Shown here piece after piece: positions 7,409-54,656 of a stretch of DNA of 64,000 nt; position 1 is the first letter of the stretch, and each line of letters opens with the position of its first letter. The notes beneath the pieces were generated by a model. That model searched no databases. It was given only the letters and a program-made list of their open reading frames with translations, and had not been told where the DNA came from. The DNA is from a virus (Duplodnaviria > Caudoviricetes), in the IMG/VR virus record IMGVR_UViG_3300021164_001175, positions 29,136-93,135 of that record. One strand, given 5' to 3'. The translations under genes and the position numbers were made by a program.

Positions 7409-7804
7409 GTGGCTAATCTTTATGGCATTCCTGTTGAAGATAAGTTTTTTCCAGAAGGACGTGCAGCGTGTACCGGGCACAATACCGAAATGTGGTTTCC
7501 GGACTACACGGTAAATAAAGAAGCTAAGACAAAACGTGAACTTGTTGCAAAGCGCAACGCAAATATTGCTGCAGCAAAAGCAATTTGCGATACGTGCGGC
7601 ATAAAAGAAGAATGTTTGATGTGGTCACTGAAGTACGAACCGTTCGGTATTTGGGGCGGCCGTGATGAACGTGAGCGTTTCTGGGACAGACGGGACTACA
7701 AGGTTGAATGCGTAGTTGCTGAAAGAATATTTATCCCTGGAATAGGAAGAGCCTCTACAGCTAACAAGAAAATGCCCACGCGCGTCATTGGGCGTATGAA
7801 GTGA
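7409..7804 (+). CDS. whiB: WhiB-family Fe-S transcription factor
   Basis: AAC..MWFP...AKAICDTCGIKEEC...GIWGG. Confidence 0.92.
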   Translation: MANLYGIPVEDKFFPEGRAACTGHNTEMWFPDYTVNKEAKTKRELVAKRNANIAAAKAICDTCGIKEECLMWSLKYEPFGIWGGRDERERFWDRRDYKVECVVAERIFIPGIGRASTANKKMPTRVIGRMK

Positions 7805-10818: not shown

Positions 10819-11346
10819 TTACTTCTTCTTTTTAGTGTTTTCGTAGCGCTTCAGTAAGTTCCGGCCCTTAGCGGCGAGACGTGCTGCATCTTGTGCGTTC
10901 TTCGGGACTGGCTCACCCCAAGCTGCGGCACTCAACGCAAGTCGAGAAGGCTCTCCGTTTGGTTTAGTCAATGGACCGGAAGGATTTGTGAAGAAACGTG
11001 TAAGAAATGAACCTTTTCGACGCATCTTCTGGGGCGTATCAGCTGCACCCTTGACACCCGGACGTAAGTTGCCGCCACTTTGACGATTGAAGTGAGCTCG
11101 ACCAGCCGCAGTGAGGCCGCCTTTAGGGTCTTTGAGCGGCTTTGCTGACTTGGTACTGATTGGAACGCAGTTAGGGACCATCTTCCCGGACTTTCCACGC
11201 TTCATACCAACTTGTTCGTAGCCGGCCCAACAAGGACCTGCTGCTTTACGGGACTTAGGCCGCATATCTTGCGCACGTACGGCTTCTTCTATCGAGTTTT
11301 GGTCGCGCTTACGTCGAGGAACGCCGCGTTTCTTGCGGCCATTCAT
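10819..11346 (-). CDS. basic virion-associated protein (CWxGY...VPNCVP motif + DUF6321-like)
   Basis: CWAGYEQVGMK...MVPNCVP; KDPKGGLTAAGR...RKGSFLTRF. Confidence 0.7.
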   Translation of the reverse strand: MNGRKKRGVPRRKRDQNSIEEAVRAQDMRPKSRKAAGPCWAGYEQVGMKRGKSGKMVPNCVPISTKSAKPLKDPKGGLTAAGRAHFNRQSGGNLRPGVKGAADTPQKMRRKGSFLTRFFTNPSGPLTKPNGEPSRLALSAAAWGEPVPKNAQDAARLAAKGRNLLKRYENTKKKK

Positions 11347-12213: not shown

Positions 12214-15200
12214 CTATCCTTTTCTTGCCTGTCTGCCGGCCTTAGCGGCGTTACGTGTGTTGGATACGAACTGTTGTCCCGACCTGGAGCCTTCGATTTT
12301 CTTTCGATTTGTGGCTTTACGCTGTTCCGGGGTGAGCTTTTCCCAGGCTGCGTCCGGGAGGTAGCGGCGTGTGCCACCTGGCCGTTCTGCCGGGGCTCCG
12401 TCGGACGTTCTCCATCGTTCTTTTGTCCACTTTTTGAGTGAACGCTGCGTCTTTGATGGTTTTCCTTGATACCCGCCGCCTGCAGCTCGATATTTCTGGG
12501 CAACAAGTTGTGCTTTTCGAGCAGACCACTGTCCCGGCTTGCCGCCATCACTGCCGGCCATGACCTGGTTCTTGATACGTTCCCGAAGTGCCGGTTTTGT
12601 GTAATTCATCGACTTTGTGAGCTGCTCTGGCGCGTGTCTGGTGAAGTCCCGTACTGCAAGCTCGGCCCACTGCGGCGCTGCATTGAGGGACTTTGTTGCA
12701 ATATCGACTAAGCGGCCAGTATCAGACAACGTAATGCCGCCGAAGTCCGGGTCAAGTTCGTCGAGTGGGATAAAACCCTTTGGACGCTTCTTGAAACGAG
12801 AAGATATTGCTTCCCACGAGGTAGCCATACGCCCAATCATTTCACGACCGAGTTTGGTAATGGCTTCAGTACGTTCTGCGAGTGCTTCCTTCACATTGTC
12901 ATAGATTTCTTTAGCACGTTCTCTATCAATGATTGAGTTAGCTACCAAGTCTTTGAGTAGAAGCCCCATCATCTCGATGCCGCCCAATCGAAGGGCATCT
13001 TCTAGTCCCGAGTCTACGAACCCTTCTAGTGCGTTGACCTGTGTTGTACTTACGCTTGACAATGGGATATTAAGCTTCTGACTAATTTGGAGTTTTGCTG
13101 CCATCTGTGCAGTCATGACGCCGGCTTTTACCAAGTTGCGTACATCGTCGTTACCCTTAAAATTATTCCAATGGTCATCAAACTTTTGGACTATCTCGTC
13201 GTACTTCTCACGTAAGTCACCTGTAAGCCTGGAACGAACATCATTTATGGCATCAAGAACTGCTTGTTTTCTATTTGCTTCAGTGATTGGAGCGGCCTTT
13301 GACGCACGTGCAAGTAAGTCCCGACCGTCAAGCGGCTTATCAACTGTTCCGCGGCTGGCAAAACCTGGCTTCTTATCTTTTTCTGCTTCAGCTGTCAATC
13401 GAGCAATGTCTATCATTGTCGATGTCCACTCGCCGTGTTCTGATTGCCACGTAGCGTGGTTGTTGTCATGTAGTCCCGACGTCTTGCCAGTATCGAGCAA
13501 CGTGCGCTTCACCGGAGCTCCGGTTCGACTGTCCTCACGGTCTGCGGCTCGACGGATAGCCGCTTCGATGATAGCCCAAGAGGCTTCAGCATCAGCGTCG
13601 GCGCTATGCCAGTTAGTAAGTTCTACTCCATAGTGGTCTGCGAGTGCGCCAAGACGATTGGACTTAGGTGAGTCAGGGTCACCCTTCTCGTACAAGTGGT
13701 CAATCACTCCCTTTGAGTCAATGAACCCAGCTGGCTTCCATCTACCTTCTAGTCCCGTTCCTTTGAGTGCTTCTTCCATGACACGTTGGTCAAAGATTTG
13801 GTATTGACCACCCAATATTTTGTTCTCACCAATGAAGTCGAGTGCTTCTGCCATAGATTGTGCAACTGTCGGCTGCTGTTGTAGCCACTCATCTGTCAAC
13901 GGGACTTCTACGCCGTTCTCATCGAAACGTTTGAGGTTATCTTTCGACCAGCCGCCAAGCGCTTGCCCTGGGTTCATATACATATTCTTACGTTCGACGA
14001 CTTTCCCATCGACTATCCGAATAATTCCCATTTGTACTGGCTTGCCGCCGTTAGTCATAATCCCATTTGCGTCGTTCTCGATGCCGGTGGTCTCAAAATC
14101 AAAGAAAATTAGCTCACCTTTTGTAAGCCGCTCGAGTACCTGGCGATACGTCGTAGCTCCTTCGAATAATCGAGCTGCTTCCCCGGTGTATGGCGATACC
14201 GGCTCACGCGGCTCACGCGGCGGCTCTGCCATCTTCGCGTCGGGACCAGTCCCGATAATCTTGGGCTTTTGCACCTTGTCGAGTCGGAACGTGCGGCCTT
14301 CTCCGAGTACACGGTCGAAGCCATCGACGTATGAAACGCCATCTTTTTCATAAACGTTCTTTACGTCGACACGTCGAAGCTGTCCGTTATACATAAAAGT
14401 AGCTATTTTTTTGTCGTCCAGGCTGCGTTGCAGCTGCGTCTTGAGTGATTCGATGCTGGCAGGTGTTATTTCGTCGTCTATTTCCATCGGGACTTCGTTG
14501 TCTCCACGTGAGGCGAAGCCAGGTACGTTCACTTTCTTGGCCACTCGAGACTTTCCTTCCGGTGGTCGAGCGTTGGGGAAGTATTCTTTGACGTATTTTG
14601 TTAGCTCTGATTCGATTTGTGCCGCGTCGTATCCAGGCTGTATGTTCATAACCGTAAGCTTTGGAAGTCCATTGCTATCCTCGATAACGGATACTCGTGC
14701 TACTCCGCGGCCGCTTTGTCGAACCATAAAAGTGTTTGTTGTCGAGTCAGTGTGATACAACTCGAGTTTTTCGCCATCTTCTGTCTCGAAGTAACGTGGT
14801 TTTAGCTTCTTGTAGCCGCGTCGCTTCTTGGTGCCGGCCACAGTCTGTGCCGGGATAGTCGTGTCAGTCCCGCCGCGTGAGGCGAAACCACGAGGAACGA
14901 GCGGCTCAGGGGTAAAGTTCTCAATCCAGGGCATACGTCGCTGCTTCTTGCCGCCTGGCGCATCGAACTCCGGGATATCGAGTAAGTCATAAATAGCTTC
15001 TTTTAGCGGCGTATTCATTACGTCAAGAGCTTGTGGGTTACCTGAGAGTATCGCACTCATTGCTTCTGCAACAAGCTCATTGGTGTTTGTTAGACCGTAC
15101 TTAGTATCGGTTATTGGGAACTTATCAGTCGACCACAACGGGTTCTCACGTTTGGACTTGATTGCAACATTTGTGTCGTCTGAGTGCAGCAGCTTCCAGG

Positions 15201-18200
15201 CTTTAGCAGCGCGTGATTCCGGGTCAATCGAGCCGCGTTCGATAGCCAGGTTCATTTTGTAATCGAGATAGTGGCCGTACTCGTGTAGGAACGTTGCTTC
15301 GGGACTACTATCGAGAATCATGTGGTCACCGGCCTGTGGGATATGGCCGAAGTTCATACGTTTACCCTCGACTAGGTTCTGATGCACCTTTGAGCCAGGA
15401 AAGAACTGCATCTGGCCGATACCAGGAAAGTAAGCTGCCGAAATTGGGAAGTCACCAGAAGCTATCATTTTTCCGAGAACTTTTTCGAGACGTACCGGGT
15501 CGTCGAGTGTCGCCTCAATGTCTTTGCTAATAAATGAATTGTTTAGTTGGCTAAGTATGTCATTGCCACTATCACGTGTGAGTGCGTGCATTAGTAACAT
15601 ACGGTTACGTGAACGTTCACTACCCATGACCAGTGGTGGCAAGCCATACTTTTCTGCATAATGTCGCAAAGCTGGGGAAGTATCCAAAGCGTCTCGTAAG
15701 ATTGTTTGAGCTTGCTTGACACCTTCTGGGGATAAGTCTGGTGGGTGCTGCTGTATCTGCTTCTGTACGTGGACGGCTAACGGGACTAACCAGGTGCGCT
15801 TGGCACGTGGATTGTCAATGTCACTCAGGTCAATGAGCTTGCGTATGTCACCTGGCTTTAGACCTTCTTTTAGGAACATTTCCTCAATGCCGGCGTCTTC
15901 GATAGCTTGGTCAAAGGCCATCATCACGTATTCCTCTTTTGAGGTAGGTACGGCATAGGCAATCTTTTGTTCGGTACTCGTGTTAGCGAATATCTCTGAA
16001 CGTTTCCTTGTGGTTGTTGAGGTGAATATACCCCAACCAGTTTTTGTTACTCGTCCCTCTAAGAACGGAGTTACTTCTTGTTCTACCTCTGGAGTCCCGC
16101 CGCGTGAGGCAAATCCAACATTGAGTTGTTCCACACTGTCTTGTGCGACATCATTGCCAAACACAATATCCATTGCGTTCTTCATACCTGGAGATAACAA
16201 TGCTTGTTCGTCCTCGTATGGAGAAGTGTATGCAGAGTATGCCTCTGCGAACATCTCAACTGGAGAAGTCCACCCATACATTGAATTTGCTTCAGGAAAA
16301 TCTGGATTACGAAGTTTTTTTGTTCTATTTTTGTACTGTTCTTCCCAATCAGGCATATTTACAGCTTGGAAGAATTCTTCCCAAGTTTCAGACATAAATG
16401 CATCAACTACGTTGTATGCCTCACTGTTGCCTAGTCCCGCATTCCACATATCTCTCATAAGTTTGGTGTGGATAAAGTGACCGTATTCGTGACGAACCGT
16501 TCCATCGCCATCGCCATCAACGTGTGTGTATTCAACTCCTTTTGGTGCTTTTGTCTTCCATCTTAGGAAGTTGCTAAGAAGTCGTTGAGCTCTTGACGGA
16601 GGTGCATTCTCAATCAGACCCTCTCGTTGGTGCTGCCGGATTTCGGTGAGATAATTTGGTGGATAAATGATTATTCCGTTATTTAGCTCTTTGAAGCCGA
16701 GATAAGCACCATTGAAGTCCTCTAGGCCACGTTCCTCAAGTCGCTTTAGTCCCGCATCTGACAGCATCACTGTTTGTGGAGTTCCATACATTTGGTGGTG
16801 ACGGAAAAATGCTGGATTATTGTCAAGTATTTCTTTTTGTCCAATTCGTAACTGTGCAACTTCTTGGAAGTCAAAGAAACTCGCTAATTCATCAGGGTCG
16901 GTAGTACCGAACTTCGCACCAAAGAATTCCATGAGTTTTTCTGGTGTTATTAGACCTTCATTTACCTTGTCATCTTGGTTGTCCGATACAAGCTTCATTA
17001 TCATCTCATCAAAATTGGTTGGAATGCTTTCCTCAACCATTTCGGCTGTATCCATTGTCTTATAGATAGGATGCCATTTATCCTTGTTTCCTGCTGGGGT
17101 AAGTACGTCATTACCTCTGGAGGCAAAGCCTTGTATCTCAACTCTTGCTTGTGGTGTGTATGACTGTTTCTCTTGGAGTTGTTCTACTAGTCCCCTACTT
17201 GAGTCAAGTTCTAGTAGTTCAGTGATAATGCCTTTGAGGCCACCACTTACTAAGTCATCATCACTTTGTTCAGGTGAGAGTAAGGCACTCATTGCCTCTG
17301 CGAACTGTTCTGCTGGGGAAGTCTCACCATATACGGTACGAACAAATGGCATCTCATCAGGTAGGTCACTTCTATCATGGAAGGCAGTGTCCCAATCAGG
17401 GTTGTCTAAGAGTGCACTGTATATATCGCCTACTGTGCCGAACCTCTTGAAGCCATCTGCTGACCACTCCCCTGAGTTGATATATCGTGCAAGGTTCTTT
17501 AGTCTCTTATCACCACTATCCTTGTGCATATCACCAAGTGTTCTACCTACATGGTGACCGAACTCATGAAGCATGGTGTGTCGTAAGCCTTCTTGTACGA
17601 CCCACCTTCTGGACTTCTTGTTACCACCTGACATATGCTGTGGTGCAAGGCGAGCCATTATCTTAGCAAAGGTGACATTGCTAATCTTCTTTACAACGGT
17701 GTTCTGTTTCATACCTTCTTGTGAGTAGCCAATGCCAAAGTCACTAGAGTAGATACCACTGAACTCTGCTGCCACATCATCACTGAATACGAACATAGGT
17801 GGCATACCAAAGTCATCTACTAACTGTCTGAACTGTGGTGACTCATCTAGGTTCTTAGCAAGTGTTTCTCTCAATGCTCTTATCTTGGTAGGTGAGAAGT
17901 CAAAGGGTATATCGTTACCCATATCCCTACCCGTGAGCTCTTTTATTTGTTCTTGTATATAGTCAATGACTGCTTGTCTATCTACTGTGCCTCGTTTGTT
18001 ACGGTATGGATTAGTAGTGAGGTACACAACTGCTTGCTCTGCGAACTGTGCCATCAATCCTTCTAGTGTGTCAGGCACTACTGTCTCTACTATCTCTGCA
18101 TTAGACATACCTTTGTGTCTCTTGCGATGGTTTTGTTTCTTATCGTTACCAATTGCATTGCCTATTGCTGCCATTGCTTTCTTTGTTTTCTCAATGGCAT

Positions 18201-18363
18201 CATCAATCGCACCAATGATTGCAGGTCGTTCAAATGGTGTGTTGTCTTGCACCATACCATCACCATCACCATCGATTGCATCTGCATCAAATGATTGGTT
18301 TAGTGCTTTGCGATTGTAACGATTGAGTTCAGTTACATCTGCGACATACGACATGTTATTCAT
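12214..18363 (-). CDS. ~2,050-aa GFASRG-punctuated polyprotein: 3 zincin-like modules, GNAT-like module, WYL + DEDDh exonuclease, C-terminal DUF5872-like domain
   Basis: HEFGH/HEYGH/HEYGH each with downstream ExxAE; RTFRLDK (WYL); FDFETTG...HSADAD (DEDDh); NYTKPALRERIK..GQWSARKAQ; 5 exact GFASRG; ATG 18363 lies 9 nt after TACAAT. Confidence 0.85.
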   Translation of the reverse strand: MNNMSYVADVTELNRYNRKALNQSFDADAIDGDGDGMVQDNTPFERPAIIGAIDDAIEKTKKAMAAIGNAIGNDKKQNHRKRHKGMSNAEIVETVVPDTLEGLMAQFAEQAVVYLTTNPYRNKRGTVDRQAVIDYIQEQIKELTGRDMGNDIPFDFSPTKIRALRETLAKNLDESPQFRQLVDDFGMPPMFVFSDDVAAEFSGIYSSDFGIGYSQEGMKQNTVVKKISNVTFAKIMARLAPQHMSGGNKKSRRWVVQEGLRHTMLHEFGHHVGRTLGDMHKDSGDKRLKNLARYINSGEWSADGFKRFGTVGDIYSALLDNPDWDTAFHDRSDLPDEMPFVRTVYGETSPAEQFAEAMSALLSPEQSDDDLVSGGLKGIITELLELDSSRGLVEQLQEKQSYTPQARVEIQGFASRGNDVLTPAGNKDKWHPIYKTMDTAEMVEESIPTNFDEMIMKLVSDNQDDKVNEGLITPEKLMEFFGAKFGTTDPDELASFFDFQEVAQLRIGQKEILDNNPAFFRHHQMYGTPQTVMLSDAGLKRLEERGLEDFNGAYLGFKELNNGIIIYPPNYLTEIRQHQREGLIENAPPSRAQRLLSNFLRWKTKAPKGVEYTHVDGDGDGTVRHEYGHFIHTKLMRDMWNAGLGNSEAYNVVDAFMSETWEEFFQAVNMPDWEEQYKNRTKKLRNPDFPEANSMYGWTSPVEMFAEAYSAYTSPYEDEQALLSPGMKNAMDIVFGNDVAQDSVEQLNVGFASRGGTPEVEQEVTPFLEGRVTKTGWGIFTSTTTRKRSEIFANTSTEQKIAYAVPTSKEEYVMMAFDQAIEDAGIEEMFLKEGLKPGDIRKLIDLSDIDNPRAKRTWLVPLAVHVQKQIQQHPPDLSPEGVKQAQTILRDALDTSPALRHYAEKYGLPPLVMGSERSRNRMLLMHALTRDSGNDILSQLNNSFISKDIEATLDDPVRLEKVLGKMIASGDFPISAAYFPGIGQMQFFPGSKVHQNLVEGKRMNFGHIPQAGDHMILDSSPEATFLHEYGHYLDYKMNLAIERGSIDPESRAAKAWKLLHSDDTNVAIKSKRENPLWSTDKFPITDTKYGLTNTNELVAEAMSAILSGNPQALDVMNTPLKEAIYDLLDIPEFDAPGGKKQRRMPWIENFTPEPLVPRGFASRGGTDTTIPAQTVAGTKKRRGYKKLKPRYFETEDGEKLELYHTDSTTNTFMVRQSGRGVARVSVIEDSNGLPKLTVMNIQPGYDAAQIESELTKYVKEYFPNARPPEGKSRVAKKVNVPGFASRGDNEVPMEIDDEITPASIESLKTQLQRSLDDKKIATFMYNGQLRRVDVKNVYEKDGVSYVDGFDRVLGEGRTFRLDKVQKPKIIGTGPDAKMAEPPREPREPVSPYTGEAARLFEGATTYRQVLERLTKGELIFFDFETTGIENDANGIMTNGGKPVQMGIIRIVDGKVVERKNMYMNPGQALGGWSKDNLKRFDENGVEVPLTDEWLQQQPTVAQSMAEALDFIGENKILGGQYQIFDQRVMEEALKGTGLEGRWKPAGFIDSKGVIDHLYEKGDPDSPKSNRLGALADHYGVELTNWHSADADAEASWAIIEAAIRRAADREDSRTGAPVKRTLLDTGKTSGLHDNNHATWQSEHGEWTSTMIDIARLTAEAEKDKKPGFASRGTVDKPLDGRDLLARASKAAPITEANRKQAVLDAINDVRSRLTGDLREKYDEIVQKFDDHWNNFKGNDDVRNLVKAGVMTAQMAAKLQISQKLNIPLSSVSTTQVNALEGFVDSGLEDALRLGGIEMMGLLLKDLVANSIIDRERAKEIYDNVKEALAERTEAITKLGREMIGRMATSWEAISSRFKKRPKGFIPLDELDPDFGGITLSDTGRLVDIATKSLNAAPQWAELAVRDFTRHAPEQLTKSMNYTKPALRERIKNQVMAGSDGGKPGQWSARKAQLVAQKYRAAGGGYQGKPSKTQRSLKKWTKERWRTSDGAPAERPGGTRRYLPDAAWEKLTPEQRKATNRKKIEGSRSGQQFVSNTRNAAKAGRQARKG

Positions 18364-18372
18364 TGTGTGTCT

Positions 18373-18408
18373 ATTGTAAAGTAAGGGTGCAATAGGGTAT
18401 AGCAACTA
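18373..18408 (-). promoter_or_regulatory. putative late promoter TAGTTSC-class (9-mer-N21-TANNNT)
   Basis: TAGTTGCTA-N21-TACAAT; same spacing at four other loci. Confidence 0.65.
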
Positions 18409-18447: not shown

Positions 18448-18571
18448 GTTACCTAATTAGGTAACGTCAAATGACTGGATAACTGTATCCAATTGGATAC
18501 ATATGGACTAGTGGTAATGGGGGCAACCTATGGGTATGCTGTGCCATTGCACATCTATTCCGATATCGGAA
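18448..18571. repeat. three perfect palindromes in a non-coding gap
   Basis: GTTACCTAATTAGGTAAC 18448-18465, TGTATCCAATTGGATACA 18484-18501, TTCCGATATCGGAA 18558-18571. Confidence 0.85.
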
Positions 18572-18708: not shown

Positions 18709-19500
18709 CTACAGGCTGGTGGTGATTACATTCCCAGTTCTCTGGTCAAGTGGTGGTAGTTCCTTTACCACTAAGGCTCTCTGTAGCCATCTATCGGTTC
18801 CGTCGTATCTCGGCTGGAATGGTGCTCTTCCGTGTACACAGGCATGGTTGTTGATAACCAAGATATCCCCTGTCATGAGGGCAATCTTTCGTGTAGCGAG
18901 TGAGATTGCTTTGTCTAGGTGCTCTAGAGCAAGTCTTGCTTGTGGAGTTGTGCCTTGCATGAGGGTCTTGTCGTAAATGAGCGAACTTCCATTGAGGATA
19001 GAAGTAGTTATTGTCCTATCCGGTTGTCCATCATTTTGGAAGGAAATGTCTAGGGAGGTAGTGAAGAGCTTCTCTCTCAGGATTTCTTTGATTCCGCCGC
19101 TGAGATTCCTCAGAATATTGGAAAGCGTTGCAATCGTAGTGAAGGCTTCTGGGTCACCTCGTAAACACATCAGCAAAACATAGTCAGGTCGATAAGGATG
19201 GAAGGCTGTCTCTGTATGAAGCTCTAGTTGCACCTTTGATGACGTGGAAATCTGTTGATACTCGGTCTTGTGGTTAGGTACAAGATTCTGAATCATCATT
19301 CCATTATGTTCTTGCCTATAGCCAATCAAATGACCAAATAGCGCCGCTTTTTCTCTGAGGATATTTGTTTCCGGCAGCACGACATTGTCTGGAGTCATCG
19401 GAGTTGGTGGAACATCTTTACCCGTGAACTGGTTGGGGTACAACTCATATTCAAGAACATTGAATTGATTTAGATTTAAATGAGTGGGGTTGAATATCAT
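18709..19500 (-). CDS. TauD/clavaminate-synthase-like Fe(II)/2OG dioxygenase
   Basis: LELHTETAFH (HxE), PDYVLLMCLR, NNHACVHGRAPF, RYDGTDRWLQR. Confidence 0.9.
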   Translation of the reverse strand: MIFNPTHLNLNQFNVLEYELYPNQFTGKDVPPTPMTPDNVVLPETNILREKAALFGHLIGYRQEHNGMMIQNLVPNHKTEYQQISTSSKVQLELHTETAFHPYRPDYVLLMCLRGDPEAFTTIATLSNILRNLSGGIKEILREKLFTTSLDISFQNDGQPDRTITTSILNGSSLIYDKTLMQGTTPQARLALEHLDKAISLATRKIALMTGDILVINNHACVHGRAPFQPRYDGTDRWLQRALVVKELPPLDQRTGNVITTSL

Positions 19501-22822: not shown

Positions 22823-23845
22823 TTAAGCCATTGAAAGGATGAGTTCTTGGGCTGCTGTTTTCTTCTTATTGACCCATGAGTATGTATTCATGGAAGAAAC
22901 AGCCCGTTCCTCTTTTGTCGCTTCTCTGTAGTGGTCTAGGTACTCGGTAATGGTGTTGTACATTGCCCAGCCGTTTTGACCCACTCCACCAGCATTCGTT
23001 TTCTTTGGGTACAAGACCTTCATGGCCTCAAGAATCAGTTCTCGATTCTTTTGCTGAGTCTTGCTCTCGTTTTTTGTCTGGGTGAACAATGTGTTGACAA
23101 TATAGTCAAACTTTGCTGACGATTTATCAATTGGAATCTGCAACATCTTTTCTGCTGATTGAGCAAAGATGTGCGCCCATGATTTTGACAATCTCAACAC
23201 TTCTTGTGCATCATTCACGATGAAGTCAGCATTTTTTGTATGCCTTGCAGTTACTTTCATTGATGCATCTTGAATAGCGGTAAAAACTGTGTTCTTACAT
23301 ACTGCACGAATTGGTGTGTTGGCAAATGTGATTGGTGTTTTTCCATCATGTCCATTACGAACAACGATGTATCTATCAATTCTGTCGTTGATTCCATTTG
23401 GGTCAATATGAACAGCACCTAGGTCAAGTGTTGCAAAAAACTCACGACCGCCATCAAGGACACCGCATGTATCAATAAGTGCATCTCCCTTTGATGCCCC
23501 AACAACGGCTAATGCCCTTTCAAGTACTTCCCTATTTTGTTGTACTACGTATCGTGTCCCAACGGTTGATAGAGCATTAAATGTCCCATCACCATTAACA
23601 CGAATTGTGGCTCTTGAATCTTTTACGATTATCGCAGAGCCATCTGGATTCAATAAAAAATTACCTTCAGCATCAACCACTGCAACACCGGCTGTAACAA
23701 CATCAAAGTCAGCATTTGCTGCACGGAGCATGTCGGGGATTGTCTGGAGCCCCTTAACTGGGGTTCCCAGTTTGTGCCAAGGGACAGAATGGTCGGCATA
23801 AGCCATCCGTGCCTGCATATTCGTGATTTCAATTCCGTGTGCCAT
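22823..23845 (-). CDS. DUF932/DUF945-family phage/plasmid protein
   Basis: MAHGIE..MAYA..PWHKLG, VGTRYVVQQN, NGHDG, TPIRAVCKNT. Confidence 0.88.
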   Translation of the reverse strand: MAHGIEITNMQARMAYADHSVPWHKLGTPVKGLQTIPDMLRAANADFDVVTAGVAVVDAEGNFLLNPDGSAIIVKDSRATIRVNGDGTFNALSTVGTRYVVQQNREVLERALAVVGASKGDALIDTCGVLDGGREFFATLDLGAVHIDPNGINDRIDRYIVVRNGHDGKTPITFANTPIRAVCKNTVFTAIQDASMKVTARHTKNADFIVNDAQEVLRLSKSWAHIFAQSAEKMLQIPIDKSSAKFDYIVNTLFTQTKNESKTQQKNRELILEAMKVLYPKKTNAGGVGQNGWAMYNTITEYLDHYREATKEERAVSSMNTYSWVNKKKTAAQELILSMA

Positions 23846-23863
23846 CCCTATAGGATAGTGCAT

Positions 23864-29054: not shown

Positions 29055-30368
29055 TTATTCGCCGTTTGGTGCTGCGTCGAAGGTTACTTCAACGAACGAC
29101 TCCGGACGCTTGACAGCAAGGGCGAGACGTTGCTCGGCCAAGATGACAATTGCGTTGCGGATGAAGAAGTCTGCATGCTGTTCCGAGATACGGATGCTTG
29201 CTTGTTCACGGTCATAGAGCTGTGCGCCCTGACCAAATGAACCAACAAGTGCCTTACCCTCGGTCATTGCAGGAGTTTCAACGATTGGCAAACGCCATAC
29301 CTTTGGCTCGCCACCCATTGCAACCGAAACTGCGATGAGGTACTGGCCATTGCCATCCTTGGTCAACTCAATGTCTTCCCAATCGTTTGGATGCATTACA
29401 ACACCCGATGGCTCGTAGTAAGCCAAGAACGAAAGAGTTGCTGCACGACGGATTGCATCAGCCTTGGTGTCAATCATACCTGGGTTTGTTGCCGAGTATG
29501 CACCATCAGACCAATCGTAGGTCTGAATGCCTGATGTCTGAAGAATACCGGTGAGGTTTTCGCCAGAGCCATCGCCATTGAGGATTTGAGCATCTTCCTG
29601 AAGACGGAGACCGTACATCAGTTCGTTATCAATGATTGAGCGTAGTTGTGGCTCATCAGCAAGAACGTTTCTGTGTGCTGCCTCCCAGTGTGCAAGGGTC
29701 TTGACCGAAGTCTGTACACCCTCAAACGACATGCTTGACTGTGGCTTAACACCAAAGGTTGCCGAAGCTCCACGCTCTGCAACTGCTGCGGCGTTGTTCG
29801 TGAAACCAGTCATGCGGAAGTATTCAATGATTGCTGCAGTCGTGGTACGAACTGGGAACAAGTCACGAACTCTCTTCGTGCGCTTTGGCTGAATGACGAT
29901 TGGGTCACGCTGAACAGTGCCGAACTGGTCTGGGAAGCCGCTTGGCATTGAGGTGTAAACATCCTTAACGCTGTAGCTGCCCGAGAGGCTTGAGCCGTAT
30001 TGGAAAGGTGCTGGCATGTTTGCGCCATTCTTTCCACCATTAAGGGACTTGAATTCCGTTGAAGCAAGGAATGCTTCGCCGATTGACTCGAGTCGACGGG
30101 TTGGGATTGCGTAGCCAGCGGCAGCTGCAGCAGCAACTGATTGACCACTTGCCTCGGAGCCCCACTCTTTAACAGTGTTCATGGCTTCCATGCCGTCAAT
30201 CAAGGACTTGATTTCCTTGATGTCTGTCATGTTCTTGTCAAATGCAGACTTTTGCTTTGCATCAACGATTACGGTGCCATTTTCAACTTTGAAAGAGTCG
30301 GCGATTGCTTTGTTTTCCGACATTTTAGTGCGGAGAGCTCCTTGGAGCTCCTTTAGATTTTCTGACAT
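29055..30368 (-). CDS. HK97-fold major capsid protein
   Basis: N-terminal coiled delta domain; VRDLFPV, AAAVAE..KPQS, LNGDG, MHPNDW, AEQRLALAVKRP. Confidence 0.95.
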   Translation of the reverse strand: MSENLKELQGALRTKMSENKAIADSFKVENGTVIVDAKQKSAFDKNMTDIKEIKSLIDGMEAMNTVKEWGSEASGQSVAAAAAAGYAIPTRRLESIGEAFLASTEFKSLNGGKNGANMPAPFQYGSSLSGSYSVKDVYTSMPSGFPDQFGTVQRDPIVIQPKRTKRVRDLFPVRTTTAAIIEYFRMTGFTNNAAAVAERGASATFGVKPQSSMSFEGVQTSVKTLAHWEAAHRNVLADEPQLRSIIDNELMYGLRLQEDAQILNGDGSGENLTGILQTSGIQTYDWSDGAYSATNPGMIDTKADAIRRAATLSFLAYYEPSGVVMHPNDWEDIELTKDGNGQYLIAVSVAMGGEPKVWRLPIVETPAMTEGKALVGSFGQGAQLYDREQASIRISEQHADFFIRNAIVILAEQRLALAVKRPESFVEVTFDAAPNGE

Positions 30369-34196: not shown

Positions 34197-34595
34197 TCAC
34201 AGCCTCTCGTTCATTTGCATCATTAATATTGCCACCTTTGTTTGCATTTCCATTGCACCACTTGAATTCTTTGGCTTGGCGGCACCAACTTGGATTACTT
34301 GGATTGGTGTGGTGTCAAGGATTTCTTTATCAAAGGGAACTTTTCTATTAACAAAAACATCAGTCCATACCCTTAGGTCTTCACCTTGTGGCTCGCTCCA
34401 TAGGGTCTGCTGAAATTCGTTTTCCTGCATTTCCTCAAGGTCGTTCCTAGAGCCAACCCAAGCCCAGAATGGGACTAAGAACTTTTTCCCATCTTTCTTG
34501 ACGACGATTCCTGTTTTTTCCGAACTGGTTCCCTCTTCAACAACGAAGTAGACCTTGTCCCCAAGCGATGTTCTTGCCACAAGTACGGAGTTCAT
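34197..34595 (-). CDS. hypothetical head-operon protein
   Basis: ATGA overlap with upstream gene. Confidence 0.7.
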   Translation of the reverse strand: MNSVLVARTSLGDKVYFVVEEGTSSEKTGIVVKKDGKKFLVPFWAWVGSRNDLEEMQENEFQQTLWSEPQGEDLRVWTDVFVNRKVPFDKEILDTTPIQVIQVGAAKPKNSSGAMEMQTKVAILMMQMNERL

Positions 34596-37500
34596 ATCTT
34601 TATCTCTGCAAGTTCGTTTCTTGTCTTCTGAATCTTCTTCAATGCAGCCTTTAGTTCATCATCAATCTCGGTTTGGATACGTGTCCGAAGAATATCCTCA
34701 ACATCGCCTTCGTCTTGATTTGATAATGAATACGCCCTCGGGGAGAGCATGTCCATTCCGTGCTTGTGGGAGAACTGGACCTCAGGGATGCCCATTTTTT
34801 TGTATCTGTCGCTAATTTCTTGGCTCTTTCTGTATGCACGTAGTTGCTGCATTGCAGATGTGTTAATCGAGCCGAGTGAATTACCATTGAGTGAGTAGAA
34901 GTACTGAATTTCTTCTGGGCTGAAACCAAGTCGTGACAACTTCTCAGAAATTGGCTCTTGCTGGATTGCATCTGAAATATCCACGTCTTTTGACGAACCT
35001 TGAATCTTGCTCCAAGGGTGAACCACTGCAGAAATCTCTTCTTTCTTATAACCACCCATGATGTGGGCTCCAAGAGGTTGTTGACCAGACAAATCAGCAT
35101 TGAACTTGTCAATCCCTGCTTCATAGTCGGCACTTGACTTGGGTGGTCTAACTGACGAAGTATTCAAGAATGAACCTAAATCGTTATCTTCTGTCGAAAT
35201 CAGGGCATTGGCAAACCGTGTCTGATAATTATCCCCTCTCGGGTGGAGTAATGCATCCACAATGTCATCAGGGTCGTCGGAGTTCATCCATACAGGGCGA
35301 GTTTGCTGGTCTGGTCCACGACCAAATCCATAGGCAGTTCTTCCAGACACCTCTGGTCTAAGTATTAATTCAATGTCACCGTCCGCTCCGATATTTCCAT
35401 AGGGAGTATTTTCGGATTCATATTCAAATGGCATGTCTCCGGCGACAATACCTTTCTTCTTAAGTGCATTGACTGTCATGTCGCGTTGCGACTTGTGAAC
35501 CACGTACCCAGAAACAGGTCTATCTTTATCTGGAGTATCTGGATGGATGCCAATTCGTGAGTGATATTCAACAGCATTTTTTCTTGCCATACCAGAACCG
35601 GAAAAAAATGTGTCCATCCACTCTCTTCTTTGACTTTCTTTTAGAACTTCTGGACGACCCGAGCCATCGTATGGTTGGAATGGCTTTATGTCCGCCCAGT
35701 CAATATCAAAATCTTTTAAAATACTTTCAGAATCAGTTCTTACTCGTGGTCTTCTATCAATAGTGTCGTGCAAGTCAAAAACCATTTGCTCAACTTGGGC
35801 AAGAGTTTCTTCGTTTATTGAAGATGGGTCAATCAACTCAGCGATTTGCGGGTTCTCTGTAAAGTTAGAGTTCTGAATATCGGAAAGCATTTTTTCAAAC
35901 AAATTATTTCTGTCAATGCGTCGCTCAATTGGAGTCGAGACCGGCCCCAATGCATCGTCAAATCCAGAAGATGCATAATCCGCATTGGACGCAAGACCGT
36001 CAACATACTCACGGTCTGGTCTTGTTGGCTTCCCACCATTTCTTCTTACCCTGTCAACAATGTCCGTATTGTTTGTTCTTATTTCTCTGGCAAGAATTGG
36101 ATTACTTCTGCCATCTGGAAGAGTTTCGCCACCAGATGCTCGTATTTTCTCGTTGTGGTTGTCAACAAGTTTTTGTACAGATGCTTTTTCTCTTCTTAGT
36201 ATTCCGTCCTCAAATTTTGAATCACCTTTTGCTGGCCAGTTATCAATCATTCGTTGCAAAGACTGACTGCTTGTTTCTTGGTCAATAAGTCTTGCAGTAA
36301 CTCGACCATCCGCATCCGTACCGGTGATTACAATGCGCCCAGGTGGAAGCATAACTCGCCCAAATTTTCCAGACTCATCAACAGATGAATCAAACGGACT
36401 GCTTGGGACTAGAATCCCTCTTGCATCTGTGCCGAGTTCAATTGAGACTGTTCCTGGTGGTAAACCTAGGTCGTCATGCTCTAATTGAAAACTTCTCAAA
36501 TCTGGGATAGAAAGTATTTCTCCTTCGCCGCCAGTAGATTTTGGCTGAAACCTAACCACCAAATTACCTGGGAGTTTTGTTTTATCTAATGCAGAAAGAG
36601 TTGGAATTAATGTGTGTTCTACCTGTTCGCTGACTGAACCCTCGTTAATATCAAATTTGTCTGGGATAACACCCATCCGTTTTAGGCGTTTATTATCCTT
36701 ATGTATAGCCAGAATATCTCCGGCTGGATTTGCACTAATCAAAGATGCGACACGAGTATCAACAGGGTCTCCTATTCTTTCTATCGCCCCACCTTCTTCT
36801 TCTGCAAGTTTTTTGATTGAACTTCTTCTGGTCTTTTTCCCGAATTCGTCTGCATCTTTTTTACCAACGAATTTGGTTGGTGGTTTCTTCGGAGTCTTGG
36901 GTGTATCTTCATCTGATGGAAAGTCTGGTCTATCTCCATCCATTAGTGGCTTTGACATTTCCTTTTCCACCAATGCCATTTGACGCTTGCGCGTGTTCGC
37001 ACGGTGAGTTGAGTCCTTGGCTTTGGCGGTTCTATCCATCCACTCAAGTGCAGCATCAACATCATCGCCCTGAATGATGTCCATATCCCTCAGGGCATAA
37101 AGTTCTGCTGAAAGTTCAATCGCCCATAGCTGGGTGATTCCATCTTTTTCGTATTCGCTCAATGGATATTTTCCACCAAGTATTGCCACTGCCTCAAGGG
37201 ACTTGAGCGTGACATTGAGGTCGGCCATGTCAATACCATCACCAAGTTCGGTCATGCTGTTCATAATTTCTTGGCTGGTCATCTCTGAAAGTTGCTTGTT
37301 TGAGTACTTTGCCCTCATAACTTTCTTCCATTGCATCATCTGTATGACGTGTCCTATTTCGTGCGCGGCGGTATGAACCCCTTTTCCAACACGACCATCT
37401 ACGGCAATTGCTGCCGCCATTCCTCCAGCGAACATGTCTTGGCTTGCTACAAAATCCGCAATTGCAGCGGCACGTTCTTCTTCTGTCTTGGCTCCCTCTA

Positions 37501-38914
37501 CATTTACGCCGAGTCTTTGACCCTTTTTTACTTCAGGAATTTGTGCTGCTGCATTTGATGTCATAAGACCAATATCAAATCGAAGACCAAATTTTGCATC
37601 TGATATATTTGCATCAGGGTTCGTTATGTATGCCATTGCTTCAACGCCGCTTTGAAGTGGGTTCTCTCGTGGGTCATCTGAAATCATTCCGGTAAAATCA
37701 ATACTGTTGATTTCTTTTGCTACATGAGGGTCTCTGAGATATGTTTCAAGAACACGATTAAGAACACCTCTTTCCGTTGCTAAGACAGTCTTTTCTGTAA
37801 TTCCTTTTTTCTTTAAGAAATCGCGTTCGTCATCACTTAATGCCGCGAACTTGGCTTTGACATTAGAAAGGTCATTGGATATTTCGATATCCCATAGCCC
37901 CATTTCTTTGAGTTTGCGGAATGCCATGTGTAGGTGTAGGTTTTGGGCTCGTTCCTCTGGCGTTACGTCAATGCCAAGTTCTTTTATAAGGTTGTCAACA
38001 GCCCCTTCCATTTCCGCCATGCGAGCTTGACCACGTGTGCGAGCATTCTTGAGCCATCTTGCTTTTGGTCTTGCTAATTCTTCCCTATAGGACCTAGCGT
38101 CAAGTATGAAATTTCCAGATTCATCAAGAAGATGTCTTCTTCCAAATCCAGTTGCTCTCTGATGTTCCCACCAACCACCAAGGGACTCTAAACCTCTTTG
38201 TGCAATTGCCCTAATTTCTCCTGCGGACATAGCGAAGCATGTGCTTCCAAACTTGTCTGTAAATTGATTCGCTTGAGGCGTGCCCGGTGGGCACCGGAAT
38301 TTTCCCAAGTCGTCCACCACCACCTTGAATTTTTTTGCGGCTCTTTGCGCGAGACCACCAGTGGGATTACTTTCACGAATTGAGCGACCAATTGACTTTA
38401 CCGATTCAGCATTCTGTTCTTCAACTTCACGTTTGCTCAGTTTTCTTTTTGGTTCTCCATCTTTATCAACTTCGTATACATCAAGTGATACTTGTGGCTT
38501 TTCCATTTCAAGACGAACTGCCTCTTGAAAATTTGTTGCTGTAGTTGGTGTTGTTTTTTCAACCCAACCAAAGTTTGCATTTTTGTTTAAACCTTTTCTG
38601 ACACTCATCGGTGGGAAAAGGTTGAGTTCCATTCCCGGACCACCCACGGCAGAAGGGTCATATCTCCAACCATCTTGGTTCTTTATTCCGGGGAGTTCTT
38701 GTTCTTGTTCCTTCGGTTGTTTGTCTTGATTTTTTTGACCGACGGTCTTGCCAATTCCCTTAACCATGATTTCATCACTATTGGAGATTGACTTTACTGA
38801 AAGTTCAAGCCCTTGAATAAAATCAGCGACAGCTTCTTCCAACCTATTCTGGTCGTGCCCCATAGCACGCTGAGAGATGATAAACCGATTCATTCGCTGA
38901 TTATTGCTGTCCAT
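34592..38914 (-). CDS. 1,440-aa multidomain head-operon protein (zincin HExxH, ART-like remnant, DUF3626-like)
   Basis: AAHEIGH...IELSAE; RVMLPPG; DRPVSGY..YG..IELILRPEVSGRTAY; RCPPGTPQANQFTD. Confidence 0.75.
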   Translation of the reverse strand: MDSNNQRMNRFIISQRAMGHDQNRLEEAVADFIQGLELSVKSISNSDEIMVKGIGKTVGQKNQDKQPKEQEQELPGIKNQDGWRYDPSAVGGPGMELNLFPPMSVRKGLNKNANFGWVEKTTPTTATNFQEAVRLEMEKPQVSLDVYEVDKDGEPKRKLSKREVEEQNAESVKSIGRSIRESNPTGGLAQRAAKKFKVVVDDLGKFRCPPGTPQANQFTDKFGSTCFAMSAGEIRAIAQRGLESLGGWWEHQRATGFGRRHLLDESGNFILDARSYREELARPKARWLKNARTRGQARMAEMEGAVDNLIKELGIDVTPEERAQNLHLHMAFRKLKEMGLWDIEISNDLSNVKAKFAALSDDERDFLKKKGITEKTVLATERGVLNRVLETYLRDPHVAKEINSIDFTGMISDDPRENPLQSGVEAMAYITNPDANISDAKFGLRFDIGLMTSNAAAQIPEVKKGQRLGVNVEGAKTEEERAAAIADFVASQDMFAGGMAAAIAVDGRVGKGVHTAAHEIGHVIQMMQWKKVMRAKYSNKQLSEMTSQEIMNSMTELGDGIDMADLNVTLKSLEAVAILGGKYPLSEYEKDGITQLWAIELSAELYALRDMDIIQGDDVDAALEWMDRTAKAKDSTHRANTRKRQMALVEKEMSKPLMDGDRPDFPSDEDTPKTPKKPPTKFVGKKDADEFGKKTRRSSIKKLAEEEGGAIERIGDPVDTRVASLISANPAGDILAIHKDNKRLKRMGVIPDKFDINEGSVSEQVEHTLIPTLSALDKTKLPGNLVVRFQPKSTGGEGEILSIPDLRSFQLEHDDLGLPPGTVSIELGTDARGILVPSSPFDSSVDESGKFGRVMLPPGRIVITGTDADGRVTARLIDQETSSQSLQRMIDNWPAKGDSKFEDGILRREKASVQKLVDNHNEKIRASGGETLPDGRSNPILAREIRTNNTDIVDRVRRNGGKPTRPDREYVDGLASNADYASSGFDDALGPVSTPIERRIDRNNLFEKMLSDIQNSNFTENPQIAELIDPSSINEETLAQVEQMVFDLHDTIDRRPRVRTDSESILKDFDIDWADIKPFQPYDGSGRPEVLKESQRREWMDTFFSGSGMARKNAVEYHSRIGIHPDTPDKDRPVSGYVVHKSQRDMTVNALKKKGIVAGDMPFEYESENTPYGNIGADGDIELILRPEVSGRTAYGFGRGPDQQTRPVWMNSDDPDDIVDALLHPRGDNYQTRFANALISTEDNDLGSFLNTSSVRPPKSSADYEAGIDKFNADLSGQQPLGAHIMGGYKKEEISAVVHPWSKIQGSSKDVDISDAIQQEPISEKLSRLGFSPEEIQYFYSLNGNSLGSINTSAMQQLRAYRKSQEISDRYKKMGIPEVQFSHKHGMDMLSPRAYSLSNQDEGDVEDILRTRIQTEIDDELKAALKKIQKTRNELAEIKI

Positions 38915-38927
38915 TGGACTCGCTTAA

Positions 38928-40319
38928 TTAAATGTCTTGTGATTCGTCGCTGAGAAGTTGAAATTCAATAAGTGAGCGCTTGAATTCTTCGTCCTCGATA
39001 TTTGCAGCATCATCTTTCTGGCTCATCACCCAGCTTGAAGGGATTAGTTTTTCAAGACTTAGTGCTTTTGCGCGCTTCATGATATGACGCTTTGTCGCCT
39101 CTTTGTCTTTTGCTCTACCGAACGCTTGAATCGCATTCTTTAAATCGCCTTCGCCCTTGATTGGGTATGAACCATCCGGAAGAGCCAAGCCACTATTGGC
39201 AAGTTCTTCACGACTCTCGTCGGAGAATGCTCTCTTTAGTGCGATTTCAGCCGCTTCAGCCTCAATCTCTTCGGCTTCTTCTTGTTCGTACTTGTCGTAA
39301 CCAAGAACTTCGCCATCAAGAGAAACGAAAACGTCGTAAGACTTACCGTCAAGAGCTTCAATTTCAACCGCATACGAATCAATCCCTTCAAATGAATCCG
39401 GCTCAATACTAATAACTTCACCTTCAATTGACTTTGTGGCAATATCTCCGGCTTCGTCAAATGTTACAAGAAGTAATTGGTCTGACTTGGTTTGAATACT
39501 TCCATAACTGTCGGTCAAGCGATGACCATGAATCTGTCCGGTTGTTCCATTGATGAATACATCAAATGTTTTTCCATCTTTTCTCTGAACACCGACTACA
39601 TACATGTCTGCATTTGCGACGTAACCAGAATCAACGATTTCACCCTTGACTAGAGTCTGTGCATAACCCTCTGCATGCAATAGGGTCATCTGACCCTTTG
39701 TCCCCATGCAACCACCTGGGCACGTAGCGCATGCTGGTGTTCCGCCAGGATACACCTTGCTATCACTTGCGCACTTGTATCCGCCCGCACCTGCATCAAT
39801 GGATTTAATTCCCATCTGTGAAAGACGTGCTTGACGGAATTTTTGCATCATTCCAACTTCTTCGTCTTCAAGCAATTCTTCTTCTTCTTCTTCTGGCTCT
39901 TCCTCGGACTCATCTTCGTCAGCCATTTCGCCTTCAGCATTTTCTTCCGTTGCACGTGCACCCTCTGGCATTGACTCCTCGGTCTCTTCTTCTTCCTCTT
40001 CATAAGGAACTTCAGCAGTCTCGTCATCTTCTGTCATTGCATCTTCCATCGCGCGTGGGCGAGGCTTCTTTTTCTTTGGCTCGTCCATTGAAGCCATCGC
40101 CTCATCGGCGGCCTTCATGTCAAGAGCTTTTTGAAGCAAGTCGTACTCTTCGGCACGAAGAACTTTCATCTCAATTGGGAGTGCACCACATTTACCGCAT
40201 ACTGGCGAGCCAGCACTAAAGCCGCATTCTGCTGAGCCAAGTCCTTTTGCGCACTTAAGGACATTGCCCTCTGCATCAACACTGACACCGGTCACTTGAT
40301 TCGGGCTATTTGAGTCCAT
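38928..40319 (-). CDS. acidic head protein with PepSY-like repeats and an ALPDGSYPI domain (scaffold-like)
   Basis: E-rich tract; GEVISIE..YAVEI..DGKSYDVFVS.DGEVL; ALPDGSYPI..DLKNAIQAFGRAK. Confidence 0.7.
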   Translation of the reverse strand: MDSNSPNQVTGVSVDAEGNVLKCAKGLGSAECGFSAGSPVCGKCGALPIEMKVLRAEEYDLLQKALDMKAADEAMASMDEPKKKKPRPRAMEDAMTEDDETAEVPYEEEEEETEESMPEGARATEENAEGEMADEDESEEEPEEEEEELLEDEEVGMMQKFRQARLSQMGIKSIDAGAGGYKCASDSKVYPGGTPACATCPGGCMGTKGQMTLLHAEGYAQTLVKGEIVDSGYVANADMYVVGVQRKDGKTFDVFINGTTGQIHGHRLTDSYGSIQTKSDQLLLVTFDEAGDIATKSIEGEVISIEPDSFEGIDSYAVEIEALDGKSYDVFVSLDGEVLGYDKYEQEEAEEIEAEAAEIALKRAFSDESREELANSGLALPDGSYPIKGEGDLKNAIQAFGRAKDKEATKRHIMKRAKALSLEKLIPSSWVMSQKDDAANIEDEEFKRSLIEFQLLSDESQDI

Positions 40320-52285: not shown

Positions 52286-52312
52286 TTTCCACCAATCAAA
52301 TAGAGTGTTTAA

Positions 52313-52348
52313 ATCATAAGACACTTATTTGATTGGGGACTGCAACTA
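52313..52348 (-). promoter_or_regulatory. putative late promoter of the protease polyprotein
   Basis: TAGTTGCAG-N21-TATGAT. Confidence 0.65.
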
Positions 52349-52365: not shown

Positions 52366-52391
52366 GTTTCACTATTTATATATAGTGAAAC
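52366..52391. terminator. AT-rich inverted repeat at the portal stop
   Basis: GTTTCACTAT...ATAGTGAAAC. Confidence 0.4.
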
Positions 52392-54594: not shown

Positions 54595-54656
54595 CGTCCT
54601 ACATTACCCGATTAATGTGTTCTAATCTAGAACAACAATTTTTATTTGGAGATTAC

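Follow-up and report, generated by a model that had tools for sequence, protein, structure and literature searches.

In phage T4, gp21 reads the motif L/I-x-E, and a capsid-targeting sequence on IPI-III and Alt brings cargo in. phiKZ gp175, like SPN3US gp245, is a prohead protease that reads A-x-E, and HK97 gp4 (MEROPS S78), a free protein of ~25 kDa with loose specificity, removes the delta domain of gp5. In SPN3US, the gp245 cuts lie after A-x-E in many head and ejection proteins, and nearly all of them remove N-terminal propeptides (PMC10052503). Polyvalent proteins of phages and conjugative elements carry unrelated conflict-type domains on one chain and are predicted to be delivered together with DNA and processed; assemblin-like peptidases are rare in them and 'always at the C termini', and autoproteolysis by MPTases has been proposed (PMC5512222). 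The same paper does not contain the word 'linker' and describes no repeated joint peptide, lineage-specific code or second substrate in trans. Here we describe two giant proteins, encoded by the unlinked genes A and B, of a phage represented by a 93,135-bp viral contig (G000; IMG/VR record IMGVR_UViG_3300021164_001175; CheckV completeness 63%). The window that was analysed is the last 64 kb of this contig (positions 29,136 to 93,135), and coordinates are those of the window unless stated otherwise. The modules of both proteins are separated by copies of the same hexapeptide, GFASRG, and across five lineages the joint peptide changes in concert in the two genes.

12214-18363, minus strand: gene A, polyvalent protein of six modules, 2049 aa (open reading frame (ORF) list and translation; database record P0002 is identical)
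40397-52324, minus strand: gene B, fusion of a prohead protease with polyvalent cargo, 3975 aa
51767-52216, minus strand: Peptidase_S78 (HK97-type prohead protease) domain, N-terminal in B (PF04586, 37.8 bits against a cut-off of 21)

Like the polyvalent proteins of Iyer et al. (2017), A and B carry putative zincin-like peptidases, ArdC-N with MPTase, and nucleases on giant polypeptides, and A combines several unrelated conflict-type domains in one phage polypeptide, as members of that class do. Unlike those proteins, B has its S78 protease at the N terminus, and A has no MuF-type head domain. B resembles HK97 gp4 in belonging to the S78 family by Pfam and in lying between the portal and capsid genes, whereas it differs in that ~3,700 aa of cargo are attached to the protease and that the putative site, a defined hexapeptide, is absent from the capsid protein. 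Capsid-loaded polyvalent proteins and processing at a consensus site are of a kind already known; what sets this locus apart is that a code of six residues co-varies between genes that are not linked, and that both proteins also have a separate tag in common. Literature searches on the motif, on prohead-protease polyproteins and on S78 specificity returned no description of such a lineage-specific code, and the motif itself is in none of the papers of the library searched.

GFASRG joints and their covariation

Six-frame scans of the window and of the entire contig found five exact copies of GFASRG in A, with minus-strand codon starts at 17130, 16116, 14889, 14520 and 13365. These are the copies that the original prediction had placed at 17113, 16099, 14872, 14503 and 13348, and all lie in one ORF:

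17113-17130, minus strand: linker 1, zincin-1 / zincin-2; in a stretch with a predicted local distance difference test (pLDDT) score below 50, model residues 405-431
16099-16116, minus strand: linker 2, zincin-2 / zincin-3
14872-14889, minus strand: linker 3, zincin-3 / small alpha/beta module; in a pLDDT<50 stretch, model residues 1-36
14503-14520, minus strand: linker 4, small module / WYL+DEDDh; model residues 147-152
13348-13365, minus strand: linker 5, WYL+DEDDh / helical region and basic tail; in a pLDDT<50 stretch, model residues 529-551

Linkers 1, 3, 4 and 5 were covered by AlphaFold models, for which the alignments were small. Three of these lie within pLDDT<50 stretches, and linker 4 lies directly after one (residues 138-147; the block 141-150 has a mean pLDDT of 42); all four stand between confidently folded domains. 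The modelled linkers of A are thus predicted to be disordered joints between folded modules. From the residue composition of A, 1.4e-4 copies of GFASRG are expected by chance, and one or more copies appeared in 6 of 20,000 shuffles of the protein. The 18-nt units encoding the motif differ in their choice among synonymous codons for all five residue types (Gly, Phe, Ala, Ser and Arg), and the sequence around them is not conserved, which indicates that the constraint is on the peptide and not on a (recent) DNA repeat.

In a comparison of nine orthologues (69-85% identity), conservation averages 78% over the whole protein and reaches 91-100% in the columns of the motif. The flanks are conserved at 56-57% at linkers 4 and 5 and at 80-93% at linkers 1-3, so that at each of the five linkers the motif is better conserved than the residues around it, most plainly so at the last two. 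Metagenome contigs laid on gene A gave 22 variant places, one of them within a linker, which is too few for a test of selection. The linker variant, 16100 C>T in contigs of two metagenome runs (X2 and X4; lake or marine), changes linker 2 from GFASRG to GFASRD. Position 6 of the motif also varies more than any other among the B copies. Parts of gene A are covered by short contigs of one RNA library, which is no proof of transcription.

B lies on the same strand, 22,034 bp from A (the 22 kb originally estimated), with a plus-strand block that includes ribonucleotide reductase between them. Between 41303 and 50362 it has six exact GFASRG copies and 11 GF.SR variants (17 in all), as well as three GLASRG. 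The family to which B belongs comprises more than 240 protease-cargo fusions of 2,200-5,700 aa. All 120 relatives listed, out of 243 found, are punctuated by a repeated motif, and precomputed Pfam annotation places PF04586 in nearly all of these 120. The commonest 4-mers in the family are lineage-specific joints, namely GFAS, GLAS, GFSS, GMRS, GLRS, LSSG, FSSG and LGSR.

Pairing B with A on the same IMG/VR records revealed that B and an unlinked giant protein of the same genome share a lineage-specific peptide in five lineages: GFASRG, xLGSRS, GGLAS[ST], GF[AS]S and GMRS[RST]R. In G001, a complete genome of 140,645 bp with terminal repeats, B has 24 xLGS sites (17 of them LGSR) and the A orthologue, 26.6 kb away, has seven; GFAS occurs in neither. 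Both proteins of G002 carry GLAS, in 9 and 10 copies and ~30 kb apart, both proteins of G006 and of G007 carry GF[AS]S, and those of the close relative G015 carry GFASR, as in G000. In G016 (137 kb, complete), GMRS[RST]R is found in B and in three other ORFs of the head cluster, two of which bear the tag described below, and thus in at least four ORFs. When the motif derived from each B was counted in each protein in trans, the resulting matrix was diagonal, and only 1 of the 120 possible re-pairings, the true one, reached the observed sum. Two further genomes, G003 and G012, have a short protease ORF with a single motif copy (GLRS[ST]T and GLTG[AG]M, respectively), and their unlinked giant protein repeats the same motif four times.

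The positions of the linkers are homologous across lineages and their peptide sequences are different: most A orthologues keep GFASR-like joints, and P0013 and P0014 carry LGSR or FAAR at homologous positions. Hydrophobic-x-Ser is nearly universal across the codes, the exception being GLTG[AG]M of G012. The WYL+DEDDh module of A also occurs inside the protease fusions of two other phages, where it is flanked by the G[LF]RSRS of those proteins. In these comparisons, the joint peptide follows the genome, and neither the cargo nor the carrier gene. The diagonal covariation in unlinked genes strongly implies a reader that acts in trans, and hence a system, not an oddity confined to one gene, as had been proposed when the motif was first noticed in A. 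Relatives with independent linkers in the two proteins would have spoken against that proposal; the opposite was found, with the codes of the five lineages changing together.

Modules, tag and reach of the code

The six segments of A differ in how firmly they can be named. An HExxH motif and, downstream of it, a conserved Glu are found in each of segments 1-3, and these residues do not vary among 16 homologues, the most distant of which is 20% identical:

17554-17568, minus strand: HExxH of zincin-like module 1; H/E/H columns invariant in 16 homologues
16477-16491, minus strand: HExxH of zincin-like module 2; H/E/H columns invariant in 16 homologues
15271-15285, minus strand: HExxH of zincin-like module 3; H/E/H columns invariant in 16 homologues
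14260-14436, minus strand: WYL-like domain (Pfam PF13280, 16-19 bits against a cut-off of 21.8)
13570-14109, minus strand: DEDDh (DnaQ/RNase T-type) 3'-5' exonuclease domain (PF00929, 30-35 bits against a cut-off of 24)
12220-12618, minus strand: basic C-terminal tail, DUF5872-like (phrog_17747 at 3.5e-20, phrog_14910 at 1.7e-17)

The Pfam matches of the HExxH modules (Zincin_1 and ATLF) are weak and below cut-off, and Foldseek with the model of segment 1 (tag and zincin-1) returned no solved fold at E<0.001. Segment 4 is a small alpha/beta module of 123 aa, for which a GNAT label is weak: in A itself there is FeeM alone, at E 0.17, and in P0012 the homologous module matches Acetyltransf_7 at 7.9e-4, below cut-off. 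Segment 5 consists of WYL and DEDDh. The WYL domain exceeds the Pfam cut-off in the homologue P0012, and the DEDDh exonuclease is confirmed both by Pfam and by its predicted fold, for which Foldseek returned Pol III epsilon, DinG-exo and TREX1 at E 5e-9 to 1e-5 (including 2gui, 2ido and 8zef at E 1e-7 to 1e-8). Segment 6 is a helical region that ends in the basic tail, where Pfam DUF5872 falls just below cut-off. Of the labels first given to these modules, DEDDh therefore holds; zincin, WYL and DUF5872 remain below Pfam cut-off in A, and GNAT-like is weak. The absence of a serine-protease domain from A was borne out, as Pfam and PHROG scans of the whole protein and of its six segments gave no Peptidase_S78.

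Identity to A among its orthologues runs from 85% to 21%. Cultured phages gave no match to gene A by megablast, and tblastn matched 18 cultured-phage records in the C-terminal tail only. In phages of Pelagibacter, Roseobacter, Synechococcus, Methylophilales and Puniceispirillum, this tail is found mostly as adjacent small features annotated 'hypothetical protein'. Many of the IMG/VR loci that came back for the A-type alignment likewise matched the query in this tail.

A and B have in common a tag of ~25 aa with the consensus DGDxDG..QD.T.F.RP:

18220-18288, minus strand: tag in A, D.A.DGD.DG..QD.TPFERPA, residues 26-48; invariant in 16 A-type homologues
50954-51058, minus strand: tag in B, AIDGDSDG..QD.T.F.RP; profile match at residues 423-457, E 1.6e-15

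The tag is predicted to be disordered in A, and in B it follows the protease and precedes the first linker. Its profile matches 117 of 149 A- and B-type proteins. Within G000 and within the complete G001 it matches A and B only, and a search of cultured phages with the tag alone gave no match. In related phages it occurs on up to seven ORFs (G020, the record behind L045/L050), and the tag-bearing ORFs of G020 and of G016 (L111/L112) include some of 343-1452 aa that have no repeated linker, which makes the tag family wider than the polyproteins. Distant lineages of the A type have a copy of their own linker (RG[FL][AS]S[TA]T) ~17 residues beyond the tag, a layout like that of a removable targeting peptide. 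The GFASRG clade has no linker between tag and zincin-1, and there the tag would stay on zincin-1. We regard the tag as a candidate capsid-targeting peptide.

The code had been described as phage-wide, which is too broad: motif and tag mark only A and B in the partial G000 and in the complete G001. On the 93-kb contig, the scan for further GFASRG proteins found gene B alone besides A, and no other real gene has GFASRG or GF.SR; the two other GF.SR matches on the contig, outside A and B, lie in hydrophobic stretches. In G001, LGS[RSG] is clustered only in B (21 copies) and A (4), and elsewhere it forms isolated singletons at chance level. As far as these genomes go, the code marks tag-bearing polyproteins. 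GF.SR is likewise missing from the neighbouring ORFs of the head block and from two of its recognizable products:

52391-54403, minus strand: portal protein (phrog_2662 at 4.5e-68), directly upstream of gene B
29055-30368, minus strand: major capsid protein (MCP; phrog_10 at 5e-69)

The N-terminal region of the MCP resembles a scaffolding delta domain and has a conserved FLAS at about residues 100-103. MCPs are 76-82% identical across lineages (L098-L102 against 29055-30368), which also have a common synteny. The A and B proteins are only 20-40% identical across the same lineages, so that the cargo evolves far faster than the shell.

Candidate readers of the joint peptide

On balance, we consider it probable that both polyproteins are loaded into the procapsid and cut at their joints by the S78 prohead protease of B into separate effectors. 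The N-proximal tag would bring A into the procapsid, where the S78 domain at the N terminus of B would cut A and B at the disordered G-[FL]-[AGS]-S-R-[G..] joints. The products would be ~6 pieces from A (tag with zincin-1, zincin-2, zincin-3, the small alpha/beta module, WYL with the DEDDh exonuclease, and the helical/basic tail) and ~20 from B, and the effectors so released, including zincins, the DEDDh exonuclease and ArdC, would be ejected with the DNA and act early in the next host. Entry into the capsid, cleavage, the protease responsible and what becomes of its products are all inferred.

The S78 protease is the most economical reader of the motif, because no other domain is joined in cis to motif-punctuated cargo across the whole family, because its residues H74, S138 and H170 are invariant (in 16 relatives), and because there are prohead proteases, in other families, that recognize a single short motif across many packaged proteins. 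The domain is apparently intact catalytically. The residues next to the catalytic His are AHS or GHS with ..SR.. codes and mostly GHN with other codes, an association that is confounded by shared ancestry and only suggestive. A phmmer search with the S78 domain found no match among Protein Data Bank sequences. The closest protease in a cultured phage is gp27 of Gordonia phage DalanDe (L097; ON755184.1, 22424-27325), at 42% identity. It is a 1633-aa 'capsid maturation protease' with the protease in its C-terminal third, the opposite orientation to B, and it has no repeated joint peptide.

The proposed processing resembles that by T4 gp21 and SPN3US gp245, in that one phage protease would act on one short motif in several packaged proteins. 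As in those phages, a prohead protease is encoded and the same short motif recurs, in two proteins (G000 and G001) or at least four ORFs (G016), and the tag, carried by A and B in G000 and G001, would correspond to the short N-proximal targeting peptide of T4-type cargo. The motif was not found at a maturation site of a capsid or scaffold protein (MCP, portal or head-block ORFs). The proteases themselves differ, those of T4 and SPN3US being of the T4 type and that of B of the S78/HK97 type. Moreover, systems of the T4/phiKZ type almost always trim N-terminal propeptides, whereas A and B would be diced into 6 to 20 enzymes, and their three-residue motif ends in Glu and is also present on the capsid protein, whereas the motif of A and B has six residues, is not on the capsid protein and differs between close relatives. 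A protease on the substrate chain, conserved short sites between modules and co-evolution of protease and site are also features of viral self-processing polyproteins (picornavirus 3C, potyvirus NIa), although this is an analogy only, as those belong to eukaryotic RNA viruses and use cysteine or chymotrypsin-like proteases.

Several observations weigh against cleavage by the S78 protease. Lineages with linkers that are different at most positions have protease domains of 62-93% identity, so that a change of specificity would have to rest on few residues. The full linker motif is not in the MCP, the canonical S78 substrate, which keeps FLAS in G000, G001, G003, G006 and G007 (FLDS in G002) whatever the code. 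FLAS was tried as a follower of the linker code and does not vary with it, and the MCP therefore gives no independent link to the protease. Gene A stands outside the head-gene block, behind the plus-strand block with ribonucleotide reductase, and its late co-expression with B is an assumption of the proposal. Finally, all genomes examined, G016 among them, encode HExxH proteins, and for this reason a zincin-like reader stands as a rival.

If the joints are cut, a 6-kb and a 12-kb gene would supply ~25 separate virion proteins, and the joint peptide would annotate the module boundaries of thousands of otherwise unreadable giant phage ORFs. The concept of polyvalent proteins would then be extended to a head protease that acts in trans and a separate loading tag, in place of embedded zincins. 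More tentatively, and with rather less confidence than in the proposal above, we suggest a two-part addressing scheme, in which the tag may select for entry into the procapsid and a fast co-evolving hexapeptide cut-site may dice the polyproteins into up to ~25 injected effectors, the ~70% identical proteases of sister phages representing orthogonal protease/site pairs. Such a scheme would amount to a natural specificity-switch set in an assemblin-fold protease and to a general route for swapping and delivering anti-defence modules. A code that shifts in concert while the protease stays ~70% identical offers a compact natural system for studying specificity shifts in assemblin-fold serine proteases, and may yield orthogonal protease/site pairs.

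The rival that survives best, though we consider it unlikely, is that the motif is a cleavage site read by a zincin-like metallopeptidase, either one of the three HExxH modules of A or the MPTase-PolyVal of B, in the capsid or after injection. A has three conserved HExxH modules with a linker after each, and B has, as its only other protease-like domain, the following cassette:

42368-43150, minus strand: ArdC-N and MPTase-PolyVal of B (PF08401 at 8.7e-26, PF18818 at 6.7e-38)

KTSC is another part of the B cargo, downstream of the S78 domain. That MPTases process polyvalent proteins has been argued by Iyer et al. (2017; PMC5512222), and the strong conservation of the S78 domain while the code changes also speaks for such a reader. 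However, G002, G003, G006 and G016 have a code and no MPTase-PolyVal, and many protease fusions with repeated motifs have no zincin Pfam domain in the fusion itself. In G016, nevertheless, two ORFs of the head cluster contain HExxH, and one of the two bears the tag, although a search of this genome with the profile of zincin-1 of A gave no match beyond the tag. Three tandem paralogous zincins, moreover, resemble diversified effectors rather than one housekeeping processing enzyme, and it is the S78 domain that is found in cis with motif-punctuated cargo family-wide.

Alternatively, the motif may not be cut at all and may serve for docking or sorting: a phage partner (the capsid interior, the portal or an ejection/unfolding factor), with which it co-evolves, would bind it in the flexible joints. 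The original prediction left room for this, as it spoke of a processing or sorting code. Covariation and disorder fit any reader in trans and would accommodate such a partner, but we regard this as improbable. Up to 24 copies stand exactly between unrelated enzyme modules, which would have different targets, and this argues for separating the modules. An N-terminal protease followed by motif-separated modules is the architecture of a self-processing polyprotein, and the separate tag common to A and B already offers a sorting signal.

It is very unlikely that a host protease cuts the linkers after injection and that the code differs with the host. A lineage-specific motif could track the host, and the relatives do come from varied metagenomes; however, the 76-82% identity of the MCPs, the common synteny and the WhiB genes make similar hosts likely despite different codes, and housekeeping host proteases rarely have six-residue specificities that shift so fast. 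That the motif has no function, being there by chance, as a scar of recombination or as a DNA-level repeat that duplication or gene conversion has spread, is scarcely credible even though modules have clearly been shuffled between carrier proteins, given the 1.4e-4 copies expected by chance, the differing codons and unconserved flanks, the higher conservation of the motif than of its flanks at all five linkers, and the concerted change in two unlinked genes in five lineages.

Genomic setting

Portal, TerL and MCP were all found on the contig, which identifies it as that of a phage, and its sequence recurs in freshwater and lake metagenomes of many studies. Two WhiB genes on G000 (contig positions 7525-7716 and 36592-36813, the latter being window 7457-7678) and one in the locus of a relative (L002), together with the freshwater sources, point to an actinobacterial host, which suggests lake actinobacteria as the host of this phage. 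The head block on the minus strand comprises the portal gene, gene B, several unannotated ORFs and the MCP gene, with TerL divergent at 54615. Other genes near A and B are as follows:

10819-11346: DUF6321 gene, downstream of gene A
18709-19500, minus strand: gene of a TauD/TfdA-family 2-oxoglutarate dioxygenase (Pfam 3e-14), directly upstream of gene A
22823-23863: DUF932 gene
38928-40319 and 34592-38914: two ORFs of 463 aa and 1440 aa, directly downstream of gene B

The ORF of gene A spans 12214-18405. In the database the gene is called from the ATG at 18363, before which no Shine-Dalgarno sequence is evident, and an upstream in-frame TTG at 18405 would make the protein 2063 aa (P0001). The 345-nt gap upstream of the gene contains a perfect 16-nt palindrome, TTACCTAATTAGGTAA (18450-18465, minus strand), which overlaps a TTGACG hexamer and could be an operator at the gene A promoter.

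The two ORFs downstream of B have no PHROG match, tag or linker. A Pfam scan gave no match for the 1440-aa ORF and a single weak one for the 463-aa ORF (PepSY, E 1.2e-4, below cut-off). Their G001 orthologues, of 526 and 1383 aa, occupy the same position.

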